This document shows, piece after piece, positions 3,413 through 47,801 of a stretch of 64,000 nucleotides of DNA. Position 1 is the first letter of the stretch. Each line of letters starts with the position of its first letter. The stretch lies in sequence record KX130862. The stretch is one strand, 5' to 3'. Source of the DNA: Shigella phage SHFML-26. The notes below the pieces were generated by a model, which worked only from the letters and a program-made list of their open reading frames with translations, ran no database searches and was not told the DNA's origin. The position numbers and the translations under genes were made by a program.

Positions 3413-4428
3413 TGTGTTGCCTCTACATATAGCTGATTTGCATATTGAATAAGTGCTTCACGGTCAGAATCAGTGATGTCTGGAATTGCATTAATGTATT
3501 CTTCCATCAATGTCTGAAGCGATTGAACTTCAACTTCTTCACTGTCATCTGACTCGACAGAGTTATCAATCTTTGACACAACTCGTAATGAATGCACAAC
3601 TTTTTCTAGTTCAGATTCGAACTTCGTTAGATTTTTGTCTACTTCAGTTACTATAACACGTACTGATAGATTTGTAAAATCTTTATAGTCAATTTTTCCT
3701 TTAAATGGATAATGAATTCTACGATGCCAGGTAGTATTGTTTGGAATAAATTCCATTCGTTCTGTTTCTGTATCAAACATCCAGAACCCACGAGGGTCAT
3801 TCTCGTCACCTGCAGTTAGTGTCCATGGTGTCCCAATATATCTAACGTTAGCAGCCTCAGAGATAGTATGGAAGTGACCAGACCACACTTCTTTATAAGT
3901 CTTAAGGAAATCAGGTTCAAGACCGTGAGATTTCATTCCTTTATAAAAATAAAATCCATTCAGTTCCCAGTGACCAACACAAAAAGAAGCAGATGAAGTT
4001 TTGATGTGCTCAAGAATTTCACCAGTATTTTCTTCGCACATCCAAGGAATTAAATCAATTAAACATCCGTCAAAATCTACTGTAGTAGGCTTATCATATA
4101 CTTTAACATTAGGATATTTAGCCAAAAGCTCAGTAGAAGCATTTGGATGCATTACATTTTTGTAGTGGAGATCGTGATTTCCTACAATAGTATGTAATGT
4201 GATTCCAGCACCATCAAGCATTTGAACTATTTCACGGGCAAACTCCATAGTTTTATGCGTGATCGCTTTTCGTACATCAAAAATATCACCGTATTGAATC
4301 CATACCGTAATTCCATTTTTCTTAGAATATTCTATCGCTTGCTTAATTCCATCAATTTGAATACCGCGAATCCACTCATCATCAGCTTTAACGCCTAAAT
4401 GCCAATCACCCAAGTTTAGTATTTTCAT
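3409..4428 (-). CDS. 47: recombination endonuclease subunit gp47 (SbcD/Mre11-like phosphoesterase)
   Basis: 339 aa; calcineurin-like phosphoesterase motifs (GDWHLG, GDIFD, GNHD); size equals T4 gp47. Confidence 0.95.
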   Translation of the reverse strand: MKILNLGDWHLGVKADDEWIRGIQIDGIKQAIEYSKKNGITVWIQYGDIFDVRKAITHKTMEFAREIVQMLDGAGITLHTIVGNHDLHYKNVMHPNASTELLAKYPNVKVYDKPTTVDFDGCLIDLIPWMCEENTGEILEHIKTSSASFCVGHWELNGFYFYKGMKSHGLEPDFLKTYKEVWSGHFHTISEAANVRYIGTPWTLTAGDENDPRGFWMFDTETERMEFIPNNTTWHRRIHYPFKGKIDYKDFTNLSVRVIVTEVDKNLTKFESELEKVVHSLRVVSKIDNSVESDDSEEVEVQSLQTLMEEYINAIPDITDSDREALIQYANQLYVEATQ

Positions 4429-5807: not shown

Positions 5808-6050
5808 TTAATATCCTCTTTGTTTTGGTTTATTTTACCAAAAATTTATAAAGCAATATAGGAGCCGAAGCTCCTATCCACATAATACGCCATACAGAGG
5901 CTCGTTAGAACTTTTAAATTTTATGCGCTTATATTTTATAGTTCCTTCTGCTTTAGCTTTATCATGAGACTCTTTAAAGCGTCTCATCATTTCCTCTTTA
6001 GAGAAACGAATTTTATTATAATCTATTTCAGAAGTCTGGGTGTTCATCTT

Positions 6051-9209: not shown

Positions 9210-9533
9210 TTAATCTTCTATGATATCTCTATCATATCCAAGTGAAATGAGAGTTTCTTTGAAGTGTTTAATGTTCTTTTGTCTAGAATCATTAATGAAA
9301 ATGACTGGATAACGAATGTTAAGAGATGTGAATCCAGCGCGTTTAGCAAGAGATACAATCAGCGGACGATCATACTCAATCTTACCGTTATTTGTAAGAA
9401 CTTTATAGAAAGTAAAAGGAGCATTGAGCTCCTTTAGAAGTTTTGTAACTGATTGACATCCAGGACAACGACCTACTTCTTCGGGGATGCCATAGATTTC
9501 AATCTTATTCTTTAAGTTCGAGTTTTGTTCCAC
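9210..9533 (-). CDS. nrdH: NrdH-like glutaredoxin
   Basis: CPGC redox motif after a beta-strand (KIEIYGIPEEVGRCPGCQ); track ORF 9210..9662 is N-terminally over-extended; the start is probably a GTG near 9533 and is uncertain. Confidence 0.65.
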   Translation of the reverse strand: MEQNSNLKNKIEIYGIPEEVGRCPGCQSVTKLLKELNAPFTFYKVLTNNGKIEYDRPLIVSLAKRAGFTSLNIRYPVIFINDSRQKNIKHFKETLISLGYDRDIIED

Positions 9534-9816
9534 GAGAAATAATTCCTTGATAAGCCCAGTATGGCGGGTTAACAGAATCCTCACCAGAGTTTTCTTCAGG
9601 AAAATAAACCTGGATAACGAAGCCGGATTCATCAAAGGTGAAATAAGTAGTAGGCAGTTCACCTAACAAATCGGCACGAGCGTTGATTTCTTCGAGGTCT
9701 TGTTCACGTCCAGCCCAGAAGCTTGGGTTCAGACTACATTCATAGAAATAATAGTCATTACCGAACATATCAAAACCATTCCAACTCTCTACTACATACC
9801 GCTCAAAACTAATCAT
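9505..9816 (-). CDS. hypothetical protein
   Basis: 103-aa ATG-initiated ORF. Confidence 0.5.
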   Translation of the reverse strand: MISFERYVVESWNGFDMFGNDYYFYECSLNPSFWAGREQDLEEINARADLLGELPTTYFTFDESGFVIQVYFPEENSGEDSVNPPYWAYQGIISRGTKLELKE

Positions 9817-9818
9817 AA

Positions 9819-10034
9819 TTAAGCCTTTTTATCAAGAACAGCATTCAGCTTGTTAGTAATTTTATCCAGACGCTCATTAAACTCACTAGAAGATAAGCCC
9901 TTTTCTGGAGAAATTAAACTAATCACGAAAAATATAGCAATAAAAGGAATAAGGAAAATAGCTCCAACTGCCATAAACAGAAAGAATGTTACAGTTGTAA
10001 GAAAATCAGCTAAACCTTTACGAAATTTATACAT
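9819..10034 (-). CDS. small membrane protein
   Basis: 71 aa with a central hydrophobic helix (VTFFLFMAVGAIFLIPFIAIFFVISLI). Confidence 0.5.
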   Translation of the reverse strand: MYKFRKGLADFLTTVTFFLFMAVGAIFLIPFIAIFFVISLISPEKGLSSSEFNERLDKITNKLNAVLDKKA

Positions 10035-10149
10035 ATTTTACCCTTAATTAATTAACCAAGCATTGATAAGCACTAAACTATATTGGGAATAAAATTCTGG
10101 ACCAAAATGAAAAATCATATCATTTATAGTATCCATAATGTAATTCAGT

Positions 10150-10620
10150 TTAATCATGTTTCCACACCCCATCGGTATTTGACCAAAGTCGCTGATTATC
10201 TGATCCTCGCCACAGCTTTTTAGTCGGAAGATTTTTCTCATACTTCCCATCAATAATAACATCAACATATTTAAGCATTTCTAGCTGTTTAATATCTTCA
10301 AACTTATATCCTGTCCACAACCAAATGCTTTTATTGGGATAAAGATTTTTAATAGTTTGAACCACAGAGTGAATCACGTCTCTGTTATCAGGATAAAGAG
10401 GGTCTCCTCCAGTTATAGTTAATCCTTCTATATAATCATTATTCAAACATTCAATCAATTGTTCTAGTGTTTCACCGGTGAATGGAATACCATTTCTAGC
10501 ATTCCATGTTGATTTATTATAACACCCTTCACATTTATGCAAACAACCTGTAACGAAAAGAACAGTTCTGCAACCAGGGCCATTCACAAAGCAGCACGGG
10601 TATATTCTGTCATAATTCAT
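10150..10620 (-). CDS. nrdG: anaerobic ribonucleotide reductase activating protein NrdG (radical SAM)
   Basis: CxxxCxxC radical-SAM motif (CLHKCEGC); starting at MNYDRIYP gives 156 aa as in T4 NrdG; track ORF starts at an upstream TTG. Confidence 0.9.
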   Translation of the reverse strand: MNYDRIYPCCFVNGPGCRTVLFVTGCLHKCEGCYNKSTWNARNGIPFTGETLEQLIECLNNDYIEGLTITGGDPLYPDNRDVIHSVVQTIKNLYPNKSIWLWTGYKFEDIKQLEMLKYVDVIIDGKYEKNLPTKKLWRGSDNQRLWSNTDGVWKHD

Positions 10621-11447
10621 AATAATATCCAATTTTTCCAAGCTTCATCAGTAGAATTACAGCGTTTTAGTATAAGATGTCTAGAAACTTTTATGGCATT
10701 TGAGCACTTTTTAATTGAATCATATTTAATACCGTCAACTGAAACGGTTTTGCTAGTTGGAGAAATTTTTCCATACATTGGATTTTTTGAACCAACTTGA
10801 AGTCCTTTTAAAGCTTTTGAAAGCTTTTGTCTAGATTCCAATGACATGGGAGAATTCTTTTTACCTTCAATAATTCGCTTGCGATGAAGTTCGCGTTCTT
10901 CTTCACTCAAAGAATTGTAATATTTTTTAACACCGTTTGATATAGATAATTTATCTTTCTCAGACCGCTCTCCAGCTAATTTACTTCTAACATCTTTTCG
11001 CTTCATAGCTATGCTTACGGCTTTATTTAAATTTGCTTGATGCTCTGGCGTACGTTTATATTTCTTTAAAGCACGTGAAATAGCTATTTTAGTTTCTTCT
11101 GTTCTCTTTTTACCTTTATTTGCTAAACTATTTTTGTGGCGATGTTCAAGTGTCTGTTCATAGGCAGTTCCACCTTTTCCACCAGGTTTAATATTATATG
11201 TATTTTCTTTTAGACAATACTCTTCAGTTACAAGTTCAGCTTCTTTATCATACATTTGCTTTTCATTATCAAAAACATATAAAATTTCTTTATAAAAATT
11301 TTTTCTACCATATTTTAATAAAGCAGCACGAATCAATGTTCCTGATCCCATATAACCGTCATTTATATTATCGGTGCTATGCGCACCGATATATTCCTTT
11401 GAATTAATTATATTTGTTATTTTATAAATTATATAATACCTATGCAT
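10617..11447 (-). CDS. GIY-YIG homing endonuclease (Seg-like)
   Basis: 276 aa; N-terminal GIY-YIG module (YYIIYKITN...EYIGAHST...GYMGSG); C-terminal NUMOD-like DNA-binding repeats; overlaps the nrdD stop and the nrdG start. Confidence 0.85.
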   Translation of the reverse strand: MHRYYIIYKITNIINSKEYIGAHSTDNINDGYMGSGTLIRAALLKYGRKNFYKEILYVFDNEKQMYDKEAELVTEEYCLKENTYNIKPGGKGGTAYEQTLEHRHKNSLANKGKKRTEETKIAISRALKKYKRTPEHQANLNKAVSIAMKRKDVRSKLAGERSEKDKLSISNGVKKYYNSLSEEERELHRKRIIEGKKNSPMSLESRQKLSKALKGLQVGSKNPMYGKISPTSKTVSVDGIKYDSIKKCSNAIKVSRHLILKRCNSTDEAWKNWILL

Positions 11448-13257
11448 GTTTTACTCGTTTTACCATTTCTTTCATTTTACCTAAATTCCATGGAACAACG
11501 CTAGGAGTTCCAAGATATCCGCATGTTCTTCTTATTGTATTCATCTTTTTAGGATCAGTTTCTCCACAAATAGAACAAACAAATCCGTTTTCAGTAGGAG
11601 TCATTTCATGGGTACTTCCGCATGTAAAACACTTATCTACTGGCATGTTAACACCAAAATAATCTAAATGTTGTACAGCATAATCCCATACAGCCTCAAG
11701 ACCTTTTAGGTTATTTTTCATATCAGGAAGTTCAACATAAGAAATGTGACCACCTGTCGCAATGAAATGATATGGCGCTTCACGAGAAATTTTTTCAAAC
11801 GGAGTAATATTTTCTTCTACTGAAACGTGGAAACTATTAGTGTACCAGCCTTTATCGGTAACATCTTTTACACTTCCATATTTTTCTGTATCAAGTTTAC
11901 AGAAGCGATAACAAAGGTTTTCAGCAGGAGTCGAATATAAACTAAAAGCAAATCCAGTTCTTTCAGTCCACTGTTTAAGATGAGCATTCATTTTAGTTAA
12001 AATTTCTTGTCCAATATCACGACCGACAAGAATATTCAATTCGTGAATACCAATGTATCCTAGGGACACTGAACTTCTACCATTTTTAAATAACTCAATT
12101 ATATCGTCATCAGGTTTAAGACGAACCCCGAATGCACCTTCTTGGTAAAGAATAGGAGCAACAGTCGCTTTAACTCCTTTTAAGGAACTAATTCTACACA
12201 TCAAAGCTTCAAAACATAAATCCATTCGTTCATTGAATAATTCAACAAATTTCTGTTCATTGAACTGTGTTCCAATATAAGAATCTAACGCGATGCGAGG
12301 AAGATTCAGTGTTACAACACCAAGATTATTACGTCCATCAAGAATTTCATTACCAGTCGAATCTTTCCATACGCTCAAGAAACTACGGCAACCCATTGGA
12401 GAAACAGGAATAGATGAACCAGTGATAGCTTTATTGTTCTTAGCTGAAATAATATCAGGATACATTCTTTTGCTTGCACACTCTAGAGCAAGCTGCTTAA
12501 TATCATAGTTCGGATCGTCTTTATAAAGATTAACACCTTCTTCAACAAACATAACAAGCTTAGGGAAAATAGGAGTTATCCCATCACGACCAAGACCTTT
12601 AATACGATTTTTCAGAATTGCTTTCTGAATCATTCGTTCAGTCCAGTCAGTTCCTGTACCAAATGTAATTGTTACAAAAGGAGTCTGTCCGTTTGAACTA
12701 AAGAGAGTATTTACTTCATATTCATAAGCTTGGAATGCATCGTATACGTCTTTTTCTGTTTTAGATTGAGCATAATTTAACGCATCAGCGATTTGCCATT
12801 TTTCTGCATCCTCAATATGTTTTGCATAGGTGCGTTTAACATAAGGAGAAAGTACTTTATCTACATTAGCAAAAGTCGTTCCGCCGTATTGGTGAGAAGC
12901 AACCTGTGCAGTAATTTGTGCCATAATTGCAGTAGCAACGCCAATTGATTTAGGAGTTTCAATCTGCGCATTACCTAGCTTAAATCCGTTCTCAAGCATT
13001 CCTTTTAAATCTACTAAACAGCAATTAGTAAATGGAAGAGCAGGGGAATAATCAATATCGTGGAAATGAATAATTCCGCTTTCATGCGCTTTCATAATAA
13101 AAGACGGGACCATATTTTTGGCAATGTGTTTAGACACAATACCAGCCATAAGGTCCCGTTGAGTTGGAAAAACACGAGAATCTTTATTAGCATTCTCGTT
13201 TAAAAGGTCTTTATTAGTTTTATGAATCAATCCTTCAATTTCTTTTTCAATTGTCAT
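11440..13257 (-). CDS. nrdD: anaerobic ribonucleoside-triphosphate reductase NrdD
   Basis: 605 aa continuous ORF; C-terminal glycyl-radical region and Cys-rich zinc site (CFTCGS...CSICGE); no intron interruption. Confidence 0.95.
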   Translation of the reverse strand: MTIEKEIEGLIHKTNKDLLNENANKDSRVFPTQRDLMAGIVSKHIAKNMVPSFIMKAHESGIIHFHDIDYSPALPFTNCCLVDLKGMLENGFKLGNAQIETPKSIGVATAIMAQITAQVASHQYGGTTFANVDKVLSPYVKRTYAKHIEDAEKWQIADALNYAQSKTEKDVYDAFQAYEYEVNTLFSSNGQTPFVTITFGTGTDWTERMIQKAILKNRIKGLGRDGITPIFPKLVMFVEEGVNLYKDDPNYDIKQLALECASKRMYPDIISAKNNKAITGSSIPVSPMGCRSFLSVWKDSTGNEILDGRNNLGVVTLNLPRIALDSYIGTQFNEQKFVELFNERMDLCFEALMCRISSLKGVKATVAPILYQEGAFGVRLKPDDDIIELFKNGRSSVSLGYIGIHELNILVGRDIGQEILTKMNAHLKQWTERTGFAFSLYSTPAENLCYRFCKLDTEKYGSVKDVTDKGWYTNSFHVSVEENITPFEKISREAPYHFIATGGHISYVELPDMKNNLKGLEAVWDYAVQHLDYFGVNMPVDKCFTCGSTHEMTPTENGFVCSICGETDPKKMNTIRRTCGYLGTPSVVPWNLGKMKEMVKRVKHA

Positions 13258-13727
13258 TTTAAACTCTTTCTAAGCTGCTTCTTAAATGAAGCTATTAACT
13301 GTGTTTTGGTGTCAGATTCATTATATTCAAATCCTCTTTGAAGCATCTCGGCCATCATTTCCTCTTTTCCTAAACGAGAAAATTCCTTTGATTTATCTCC
13401 AACAAAGTTAGGGTGAATATTATTTTGGGTGTAATCGGATTTTAAATAAGTAAGTAAATTTTCTAACCATTCAAGATAATCAACACCTTGACCCTTTAAG
13501 CCAGAACGATTAAATTTGTGCTTCATTTGACCTTCTGCAGCATTGCAGAGATTACAAAGCAATCCACGTACCTTTCCTGCTTTTGGTCCATTTAATTCAT
13601 GGTCATGATCGAGGTGATTAGATTGAACATCAGGATTTAATTCTCGTTGGCAAATTAAGCATTTACCGTTTTGTGCATCATAAAATTTCTGTTTTTCTTC
13701 TTTGTATAATTTGCCAGTCAATAACAT
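13254..13727 (-). CDS. 49: endonuclease VII (Holliday junction resolvase)
   Basis: 157 aa; N-terminus MLLTGKLYKEEKQKFYDAQNGKCLICQREL with the zinc-binding Cys cluster; length equals T4 gp49. Confidence 0.95.
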   Translation of the reverse strand: MLLTGKLYKEEKQKFYDAQNGKCLICQRELNPDVQSNHLDHDHELNGPKAGKVRGLLCNLCNAAEGQMKHKFNRSGLKGQGVDYLEWLENLLTYLKSDYTQNNIHPNFVGDKSKEFSRLGKEEMMAEMLQRGFEYNESDTKTQLIASFKKQLRKSLK

Positions 13728-13767
13728 AATAAAACCCTTACCTTAAATAGATAAGGGTATTTATTAT

Positions 13768-13816
13768 TTAAGTATTGTAAAACATTCGATGCAATCGTTT
13801 ATACTGTCGAATCATC
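13768..13816 (-). repeat. direct repeat copy 1 of the pin 3' end (about 48 bp)
   Basis: aagtattgtaaaacattcgatgcaatcgtttatactgtcgaatcatc versus aagtattataaaacatttgatgcaatcgcttatattgccgaatcatt at about 13983-14030; a second shorter repeat (cagaaaaagaattttg) near 13957 and 14037. Confidence 0.6.
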
Positions 13817-13944
13817 TTTTTAGTAGGACGAGAATAGGTTCCTACGCAAGTGGTCATATGAGGGTCCGTAGAATGTCCTTTAATAAAAAGTTTCCAAACC
13901 TTACCGCCATTTAACTTTTCAGTATAAACCAATTCGGTTTTCAT
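13768..13944 (-). CDS. small ORF (58 aa) sharing its last 15 residues with Pin
   Basis: ATG-initiated minus ORF MKTELVYTEKLNGG...MIRQYKRLHRMFYNT; the C-terminus is encoded by a direct repeat of the pin 3' end; below the track cutoff. Confidence 0.3.
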   Translation of the reverse strand: MKTELVYTEKLNGGKVWKLFIKGHSTDPHMTTCVGTYSRPTKKMIRQYKRLHRMFYNT

Positions 13945-13980
13945 TAAAATGCCTTGTCAGAAAAAGAATTTTGAGTTTTT

Positions 13981-37511: not shown

Positions 37512-38177
37512 TTAAAATTTCATTTTTCGACCTTTAAACCATCCTTCTGGAATTGGGTCAGTTTTCTTAATACGTTTAGAAACTTTTTCATCTAATGAAT
37601 GAATCCACATCATACCAAATTGGGAATTCTTTTCACCTTTCTGGTGATTATTTTTAGCGTGAATTTCTTTCATTTTATTAATAGTTTCATCTGAATGGGA
37701 CTTACCCAAGAAAGATTTAGTATTTGAAAATTTCTCTCTATACTTAGGATTATCCCAAAGCTGTTTAAACCTTTCTGAACCCATTTTACGATATTTTTCT
37801 TTAAGGTCTGGGTCGTTCTCAAATCTGGTTTTAAAAGCGGCAGCTCCTTTTAAGGAAGCTTCTTTCTTTTTATCCAAATATTCTTTAGTGTTTAAATGGT
37901 CCCAACCACCTTCACCACCTAATTTCAAATTATAAACATCAGGGCGCTTTAAAAACTCTTCAGTCACAATATTCTTTTCTGACTCAAACATAGAGGTTTT
38001 ATCGTCAAAGAACTCTAATATTTCTTTAGAAAAATTTTCTATACCATACTTATCTTGGGCTCTTTTTAATAATTTACCAGAACCCATATATCCATCATCT
38101 AAATTTTCAGTTGAATGGGCGCCTATATAAATTTTATTATTAATTTTATTTGTTATTTTATAAGTGTAATAGAACAT
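37512..38177 (-). CDS. segB: GIY-YIG homing endonuclease SegB-like
   Basis: 221 aa; GIY-YIG module (YYTYKITN...IYIGAHST...GYMGSG); embedded in the tRNA cluster as segB is in T4. Confidence 0.8.
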   Translation of the reverse strand: MFYYTYKITNKINNKIYIGAHSTENLDDGYMGSGKLLKRAQDKYGIENFSKEILEFFDDKTSMFESEKNIVTEEFLKRPDVYNLKLGGEGGWDHLNTKEYLDKKKEASLKGAAAFKTRFENDPDLKEKYRKMGSERFKQLWDNPKYREKFSNTKSFLGKSHSDETINKMKEIHAKNNHQKGEKNSQFGMMWIHSLDEKVSKRIKKTDPIPEGWFKGRKMKF

Positions 38178-46729: not shown

Positions 46730-47224
46730 ATGGAAGGTTCTTCTATCGACGTCACCTTTACCGCTCAATTAGAAACAGGTGAAACGTTAGTATCTATAAA
46801 TATAACTAGTTACGAAGAAACTCCTGGGGTTTTAGTAGAAGAAAATCGCTTATATGGAACATATGAATCTGTGTTTGGATTTGGAAATGACGCGTTGAAA
46901 TATCGACTAGGCGATGAATTTAAAACTGCTGCTTCATGGGAAGAACTTCCTACTGATTCTGATACTCAGTTGTATTTGTGGAAAGCTCCTCAGAACCTCC
47001 AGAAGACATTCACTTACGAAGTAACATTAATATATGACTACCAAGAACAAAGTGAATCTGGAGGTTCTGGCAGTAATTCTAGGTCATCCTCTGATACTAC
47101 TGAACCGACGGATCCTCCTGCTCCAGTAAGAAAAACTCTAGTTAAAAATTATACTAAAACTATAGTTGGAAATTGGAGTCGTTGGGCTAATAAATTGAGA
47201 GAATATGCCTATGCAAGACCATAA
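46730..47224 (+). CDS. hypothetical protein (gene 5.1 position)
   Basis: Track ORF 46667..47224; the ATG at MEGSSIDVTF has an AGGAGAA SD and avoids overlap with gene 5. Confidence 0.6.
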   Translation: MEGSSIDVTFTAQLETGETLVSINITSYEETPGVLVEENRLYGTYESVFGFGNDALKYRLGDEFKTAASWEELPTDSDTQLYLWKAPQNLQKTFTYEVTLIYDYQEQSESGGSGSNSRSSSDTTEPTDPPAPVRKTLVKNYTKTIVGNWSRWANKLREYAYARP

Positions 47225-47801
47225 ATATTTTTATTTGTATTCAATAACTAATAAAACAACAGGAAAAATTTATGTAGGCGTCCACAAAACTTCAAATTTG
47301 GATGATGGGTATATGGGTTCTGGCGTTGCCATTAAAAATGCCATTAAAAAATATGGCATAGATAATTTTTATAAGCATATTATAAAATTCTTTGAATCTG
47401 AAAAAGCTATGTATGACGCAGAGGCAGAAATAGTCACAGAGGAATTTGTTAAATCTAAGAAAACTTATAATATGAAACTAGGCGGTATCGGTGGCTTCCC
47501 AAAACATAACACAGCGGGTGCTAAAAATGGATTTTACGGTAAATCTCATTCGCGTGAAACTAGATTGAAAATTAGCATTAAATCGTCTAGAAAAAGAGGG
47601 CCTAGAGGGCCTAGAGGTAAAACTCTGAAGATGTGTGGCGCCAATAACCCAAGGTATGGCAAAATAGCCCCTAATGCTAAATCTGTTATTATCAACGGCG
47701 TTTTATATAAAAGTATTAAAATCGCAGCTAAAGCTCTTAATATAAATTATAGTACCTTAAAGGGGCGAGTTAAAGCGGGGTATTATAAATGTCAGGATTG
47801 A
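47205..47801 (+). CDS. GIY-YIG homing endonuclease (SegC-like)
   Basis: 198 aa; GIY-YIG module (YFYLYSITN...IYVGVHKT...GYMGSG) and NUMOD-like C-terminus similar to the nrdG/nrdD-junction endonuclease. Confidence 0.8.

Follow-up and report, generated by a model that had tools for sequence, protein, structure and literature searches.

In phage T4, the anaerobic ribonucleotide reductase (RNR) genes harbor two endonuclease genes: nrdD, for the large subunit, carries a 1033-nt group I intron encoding I-TevII, and the slot between nrdD and nrdG holds mobC, an HNH gene. The replacement of mobC by segH in T4 relatives is reportedly the subject of a 2005 study by Sandegren, Nord and Sjoberg in Nucleic Acids Res (33:6203), whose abstract is said to describe a SegH that cleaves close to its own gene, cuts segH-containing as well as segH-less DNA, and homes in mixed infections. 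Homing with co-conversion is reported to have been demonstrated experimentally for SegH. We examined a 64,000-nt stretch of Shigella phage SHFML-26 (sequence record KX130862; hereafter the window), in which a 276-codon open reading frame (ORF) at 10617-11447 on the minus strand lies between nrdD and nrdG. This ORF is very probably segH, which in T-even phages encodes a free-standing homing endonuclease and would home by cleaving the junction and co-converting its flanks; we place the probability of this reading at about 0.93.

The gene in the equal position between nrdD and nrdG is annotated segH in T6 (MH550421) and PP01 (LC348379). The window protein is identical to T6 SegH at 270 of 276 residues (98%), with only six amino-acid substitutions between them, and the SegH genes of T-even phages of the T6 and U5 type share with it the position, the length of 276 aa, the overlaps of 8 and 4 nt with the neighboring genes and the NrdD C-terminus. 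A preprint likewise states that related phages have the GIY-YIG gene segH in place of mobC between nrdD and nrdG (bioRxiv 10.1101/2022.08.31.505936). An earlier interpretation made from the letters and their ORFs (the sequence-only reading) had rightly placed a free-standing GIY-YIG endonuclease of 276 aa at this junction but missed that the gene was already named and characterized as segH in T6 and PP01. The gene is known, its place is known and the observation is an ordinary one. Purifying selection acts on segH, its dN/dS being 0.2 in comparisons with T6 and with the Moonvirus KM16. Matches to the surrounding stretch (10000-13800) were found in 990 phage records, 67 of them at a coverage of at least 80%, with identities of 96-98% among the best ones listed; judged by its flanking genome (~96-97% identity), the phage otherwise resembles the Tequatroviruses in the databases.

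Naming of the gene varies among records. Those of RB3 (locus L037, KM606994, 1118-1852), RB5, RB6, RB7, RB9 and RB10 label the junction gene 'segD' and annotate both it and nrdG with shorter ORFs; the DNA is ~97% identical to the segH region of the window and of T6. The correct name is segH, rather than 'segD' or the 'group I intron endonuclease' and 'hypothetical protein' of other records.

The reading frames at the junction are tightly interlocked. Upstream lies nrdD (11440-13257, minus strand), a single uninterrupted ORF of 605 codons, as the sequence-only reading had stated and as both the ORF list and a reading of the sequence bear out; it matches the Pfam model NRDD (E = 3.6e-171) and Gly_radical, and it aligns collinearly with the joined exons of T4, to which it is 95-97% identical. 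Its end reads ...AAA CAT GCA TAG, and the segH ATG (11447-11445), within ...AAACATGCATAG, begins 5 nt ahead of the TAG (11442-11440), giving an overlap of 8 nt. At its other end, segH terminates with ...TTA TTA TGA, where the TGA (10619-10617) and the ATG of nrdG (10620-10618) together form ATGA, an overlap of 4 nt in coordinates; both overlaps had been counted correctly in the sequence-only reading. Downstream, nrdG (10150-10620, minus strand) encodes the activase of the anaerobic RNR; counted from the ATG at 10620, the protein has 156 aa, and it matches Fer4_12/Radical_SAM. The first three segH codons, ATG CAT AGG (MHR, 11439-11447), are identical to the M-H-R codons close to the NrdD terminus in the allele with an empty site (for example, at 5977-5985 of the comparison locus L010). 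This 9-mer, common to both alleles and within ~20 nt of the junction, could be a chance match or a microhomology trace of the original insertion.

Recoded ends of both host genes accompany segH. The 3' end of nrdD that travels with it (11440-11527, minus strand) encodes GTPSVVPWNLGKMKEMVKRVKHA instead of GNPNERGFNLGKNKEIMHRVKHQ, and the nrdG 5' end (10568-10620, minus strand), as compared among the window, KM16 and L020, a segH-less relative of KM16, encodes MNYDRIYPCC instead of ...PCD. In the segH-positive phages examined (T6, RB3, the Mosigvirus KAW3E185 and KM16), the NrdD C-terminus reads ...CGYLGTPSVVPWNLGKMKEMVKRVKHA, with one substitution in KM16; in every segH-less phage compared it reads ...CGYLGNP(N/S)ERGFNLGKNKEIMHR(V/T)KH.... 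When codons are aligned without gaps, the final 23 of nrdD, which start right after the glycyl-radical motif, prove to be a diverged homolog of equal length, with the length of NrdD kept. On the basis of this alignment, we rejected as the main reading a 16-nt frameshifting insertion in the nrdD 3' end upstream of the common ATGCATAGG.

The recoded terminus and the endonuclease gene are found in equal numbers of records. By tblastn, the segH-type NrdD C-terminus was found in 79 records at an identity of at least 95%, in none between 80 and 95%, and in ~2,136 at 80% or below, and SegH at an identity of at least 60% was likewise present in 79 records (71 at 90% or above and 8 more at 60-80%). The eight records with the lower SegH identities, although included in the 79 that have an NrdD C-terminus of the segH type, may hold diverged or partly decayed copies.

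The limits of the transferred tract could be mapped in KM16, which is 98% identical to L020 in nrdD and departs from it only in a tract that matches the window at 88-97% (60-nt blocks). In a three-way alignment, KM16 tracks L020 up to the RRTCGYLG codons, the glycyl-radical codons of nrdD (left breakpoint, window 11527-11510), then agrees with the window over the end of nrdD, segH and nrdG nucleotides 1-33, before returning to L020 between nrdG nucleotides 34 and 53 (right breakpoint, window 10587-10568). Because KM16 switches from L020 to the window and back at these two breakpoints, we take the unit that spread between genera to be ~950 bp long (~11527 to ~10568), comprising the last 23 nrdD codons in recoded form, segH and the first ~11 nrdG codons. 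Phages of three genera, Tequatrovirus, Mosigvirus and Moonvirus, carry near-identical cassettes, and the SegH of KAW3E185 (Mosigvirus) is 99.6% identical to that of the window; together with the sharp breakpoints, this indicates recent horizontal spread. The footprint is the one expected when a double-strand break is repaired with short co-conversion tracts, and it provides the main in-sequence evidence for homing. We envisage that, in a mixed infection with a phage bearing the empty site (CAATGA), SegH would cut the recipient DNA near the nrdD/nrdG junction, and that recombinational repair from the segH-positive genome would then copy segH and short flanking tracts into the recipient.

A further interpretation of the recoded flanks, which we regard as doubtful, is that they are the disrupted halves of the SegH recognition site, giving the cassette immunity at its own target while preserving the function of NrdD and NrdG. 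If so, the breakpoint in the glycyl-radical codons would mark the positions of SegH cutting in naive genomes of several genera. Such immunity would conflict with the reported cutting by SegH of its own genome as well, and the idea may already be described in the 2005 paper.

Three states of the junction are found among related phages: segH, mobC or neither gene. MobC at an identity of at least 95% is present in 32 records, essentially T4 and its derivatives. All nine close relatives from IMG/VR have an empty site, where the TGA that ends nrdD and the ATG that opens nrdG overlap in CAATGA; the IMG/VR scan with NrdG returned empty-site or distant loci only and no segH-positive locus, and the segH-positive loci used for comparison were drawn from GenBank phage records. 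T4 MobC resembles SegH in occupying the equal intergenic slot, in being encoded by a promoter-less cassette within the nrdD-nrdG operon and in having a regenerated host-gene end at its flank, but it belongs to the unrelated HNH nuclease family and has no sequence similarity to SegH. The two cassettes also differ in how they treat their host genes: mobC keeps the ancestral NrdD C-terminus and duplicates the first 17 nt of nrdG, whereas the segH cassette recodes the NrdD end. In T4 (locus L002, ~3520-3545 and 2917-2935), mobC starts with the copy of these 17 nt, ATGAATTATGACAGAAT, and the true nrdG start is regenerated at the mobC 3' end; therefore, a short direct repeat of the nrdG start flanks mobC. 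A different arrangement is seen in the Pseudotevenvirus Cronobacter phage leE (locus L036, 3459-4310 and 6480-7121; also in L029), where a SegH-like gene of 48% identity lies just downstream of nrdD, and nrdG follows ~3.7 kb further on, with another annotated homing endonuclease directly before it.

SegH is predicted to comprise an N-terminal GIY-YIG catalytic module, a linker and a C-terminal DNA-binding region. The catalytic module (approximately residues 1-95; 11163-11447, minus strand) was delimited by alignment with T4 SegB, SegC, SegD and SegG and with I-TevI, in which residues IIY 6-8 and YIG 19-21 of SegH align with the GIY and YVG motifs of I-TevI. In the same alignment, N85 occupies the position of the invariant asparagine (N90 of I-TevI), and members of a glutamate cluster, E69, E75 and E76, come within one residue of I-TevI E75. 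A basic linker with NUMOD3-type repeats follows (approximately residues 101-228; 10764-11145, minus strand): Pfam NUMOD3 (PF07460) scores 31.9 bits (E = 1.2e-7) against a cut-off of 20.4, with the best stretch at residues 200-228 and three stretches at a relaxed E-value, in agreement with the NUMOD-like C-terminal region noticed in the sequence-only reading. Residues 226-273 (10629-10772, minus strand) form a putative helix-turn-helix similar to the I-TevI DNA-binding domain, as suggested by Pfam I-TevI_DNA-bd (PF20987; E = 3e-4, 21.1 bits, below the cut-off of 27) and by BLASTP against I-TevI residues 194-243 (30% identity, E = 3e-4). In addition, the un-curated PHROG 314 'homing endonuclease' matches with E = 2e-60, and NCBIfam TIGR01453 (group I intron endonuclease, I-TevI family) covers residues 7-274 with E = 7e-13.

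Structure prediction points to the same family. An AlphaFold2 (AF2) model was built from an alignment of the three paralogs in the window only; its N-terminal ~90 residues have a predicted local distance difference test (pLDDT) score of 73-87 and adopt a beta-beta-alpha-beta-alpha arrangement, with strands at residues 5-12 and 18-24. By Foldseek, the top match in the Protein Data Bank (PDB) was the catalytic domain of I-TevI (1mk0; probability 1.00, target TM-score 0.64, E = 0.017), and the second was the I-TevI DNA-binding domain (1i3j; E = 0.59), this one from a low-confidence region; at the sequence level, phmmer detected no meaningful match to SegH among PDB entries. I-TevI, the endonuclease of the T4 td intron, is thus the best fold match for SegH as well as the namesake of the profile that spans it, and the two share a plan of GIY-YIG module, linker and C-terminal helix-turn-helix, the last of these being putative in SegH. 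They differ in that I-TevI is intron-encoded, has a zinc finger in the linker and contains the Arg27 helix, whereas SegH is free-standing, has NUMOD3 repeats instead of the zinc finger and is gapped at the Arg27 helix in the alignment.

We searched for signals that might govern segH expression. No T4 late-promoter consensus, TATAAATA, occurs near segH (within 13 kb), a generic promoter scan yielded fewer sites than in shuffled sequence, and a MotA-box-like TGCTTTA inside segH has, by eye, no properly spaced -10 element. A start-codon-sequestering hairpin and a late promoter are known for I-TevI and segB; at the segH start codon we found no such hairpin, with the RNA folding no better than shuffles (z = +1.2). 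These results fit a promoter-less cassette within the nrdD-nrdG transcription unit. Because the segH start overlaps the nrdD stop and the segH stop overlaps the nrdG start, we infer that segH is most likely translated by coupling to its neighbors. Several seg and mob genes of T4 are similarly promoter-less, free-standing cassettes translated from a host operon (review PMC2988022).

Besides the gene at the junction, the absence of an intron from nrdD distinguishes the window from T4. The position at which the T4 intron is inserted lies, unoccupied, at 12719-12720 (minus strand; 12720 would be the last base of exon 1 and 12719 the first of exon 2). Across it the window and T4 have the same amino acids, and the DNA of the window is identical to that of T6 and nearly identical to that of intron-less IMG/VR relatives. 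T4 is the outlier here, departing synonymously at -2 and at six positions from +8 to +20; the I-TevII cut falls 13-15 nt downstream of the insertion site, among the positions at which T4 and the window disagree. KAW3E185 contains a second type of nrdD intron at the same insertion site (locus L034, 3251-4295; 1045 nt), the endonuclease of which is only 56% identical to I-TevII, and on the exon-2 side its flank agrees with the window at all 34 positions from +1 to +34. I-TevII at an identity of at least 95% occurs in 25 phage records, and the 56%-identical I-TevII-like protein occurs in 45. From these comparisons, the insertion site of the window is intact and of the standard intron-less allele, making it a plausible homing target, particularly for an intron of the KAW3E185 type. 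An Rfam search of the window found no group I intron, a result that is uninformative, the known ORF-bearing intron of KAW3E185, which served as a control, having been missed as well.

In weighing the assignment as a homing endonuclease, we considered several points that count against it. Curated GIY-YIG profiles fall short: TIGR01453 scores 49 bits against a cut-off of 56, SegE_GIY-YIG (PF19835) reaches 15.3 bits against 25 (E = 0.025), and the Pfam GIY-YIG model PF01541 has no match to SegH at E-values up to 10. The segment around Arg27 of I-TevI is gapped in the alignment across the whole group of SegB, SegC, SegD and SegH, the AF2 model has a mean pLDDT of only 55, and with E-values of 0.017 and 0.59 the fold matches are weak. 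The catalytic activity of SegH is a prediction. One could argue from the sub-threshold profiles and the Arg27 gap that SegH is a defunct or domesticated remnant that no longer cuts or homes, retained because its deletion would damage nrdD/nrdG expression or through a role as a DNA-binding regulator. Both overlaps do make a clean loss of segH difficult, and embedded signals are known to favor gene retention, with I-TevI doubling as a repressor (review PMC2988022). We nevertheless consider a remnant, by either route of retention, highly improbable: segH is a full-length ORF whose product has 98% identity to the T6 protein, the dN/dS of 0.2 holds across genera, and near-identical cassettes with sharp breakpoints occur in Tequatrovirus, Mosigvirus and Moonvirus. 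Moreover, the reduced motif set is also found in SegB and SegC, which are listed as active enzymes (review PMC2988022). Because the SegC paralog in the window passes the PF19835 cut-off, the sub-threshold profiles reflect a limit of profile sensitivity rather than counter-evidence, and because the alignment behind the AF2 model is shallow, the support from fold comparison is weak.

A functional link between the junction endonuclease and the missing intron, with SegH being either an intron endonuclease that has moved or a replacement directed at the intron insertion site, is more improbable still, to the point of being barely credible. I-TevII is, like SegH, a homing endonuclease of the GIY-YIG type associated with nrdD, and by tblastn it shows a weak similarity to a SegH-like gene in L029 (33% over 139 aa). 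However, nrdD is continuous over its 605 codons and segH lies past its stop, so that segH is not intron-encoded; I-TevII resides in the group I intron at the equivalent of 12719/12720, is absent from the window and can co-occur with segH. Both segH and an nrdD intron are present in EC128, FL23, FL44, GRNsp7 and SYGD1 (two-piece matches with ~1 kb extra) and in KAW3E185. The alternative occupant of the slot is mobC, not I-TevII, the co-converted tracts end within ~90 nt in nrdD and ~50 nt in nrdG, more than 1.1 kb from 12719/12720, and the insertion-site allele of the window is that of phages lacking both segH and the intron. Because several phages carry both elements, we regard the junction endonuclease and the intron as independent, and the presence of segH and the absence of the intron as unrelated, ordinary polymorphisms.

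T4 is indeed as the sequence-only reading had described it, with a group I intron and an intron endonuclease in nrdD, and it carries mobC rather than the window's gene at the junction; the comparison with the T4 exon junction that this reading had proposed found the insertion site intact and unoccupied. The reading overlooked that the T4 counterpart of the slot is the HNH gene mobC and not the intron endonuclease. The contrast with T4 is real and comes from two separate, well documented polymorphisms: the junction may hold segH, mobC or neither, and nrdD may or may not contain an intron.

SegH has exactly two paralogs among all window ORFs of at least 60 aa, as determined by phmmer: the product of 47205-47801 (E = 1e-39) and that of 37512-38177 (E = 2e-30). 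The former, on the plus strand, is a full-length SegC of 198 aa that contains NUMOD3 and a helix-turn-helix and is 99% identical to T4 SegC over the first 135 aa. The latter, on the minus strand, is SegB, a protein of 221 aa that is 84% identical to T4 SegB and is encoded in the tRNA cluster between tRNA-Arg and the next tRNA. By BLASTP, SegH is 46% identical to the window SegC over 133 aa and 40% identical over the C-terminal 50 aa, which include the putative helix-turn-helix, and it is 52% identical to the window SegB over the N-terminal 102 aa only; SegB and SegC of the window are 55% identical to each other. The sequence-only reading had likened the C-terminal region to the SegC-like protein and the N-terminal module to SegB, counting three paralogous GIY-YIG endonucleases in the window, and phmmer and pairwise BLASTP agree with it on each point. 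T4 SegB, SegC and SegD share with SegH an N-terminal signature, DGYMGSG...KYG..NF.KEIL...VTEE...YN.K.GG, at 46-55% identity. They differ in their insertion sites (the tRNA cluster, 5.1/5.3 and 23/24) and in having different or shorter DNA-binding tails, the longest NUMOD3 linker being that of SegH. The annotation of T4 SegC ends at 140 aa as against 198 aa here, and the T4 copy appears to be C-terminally truncated.

Beyond correct annotation, the locus has little significance. The window is a further example of the T-even ribonucleotide reductase genes as hot spots for selfish endonuclease genes, and the fine map of the cassette, together with its presence in three genera, offers a small but useful illustration of a free-standing homing gene that carries rewritten host-gene ends.

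The wider region, 9.2-14.5 kb on the minus strand, contains in order pin, gene 49, nrdD, segH, nrdG, 55.8, an extra ORF and nrdH, with gene 49 (13254-13727) encoding endonuclease VII. Relative to T4, T6 and RB3, an insertion of ~160 nt lies between pin and gene 49 (13816-13977), and at its flank ~49 nt of the 3' end of pin are duplicated. It creates a 58-aa ORF (13768-13944, minus strand), the C-terminus of which, MIRQYKRLHRMFYNT, copies that of Pin, and this variant is found at a query coverage of at least 80% in 186 phage records. A second insertion, of 324 nt (9510-9833), lies between 55.8 and nrdH and encodes an ORF of 103 aa (9505-9816, minus strand); KAW3E185 shares this insertion, whereas T4, T6 and RB3 lack it, and its GC content is ~0.40, compared with ~0.33 in the surroundings.

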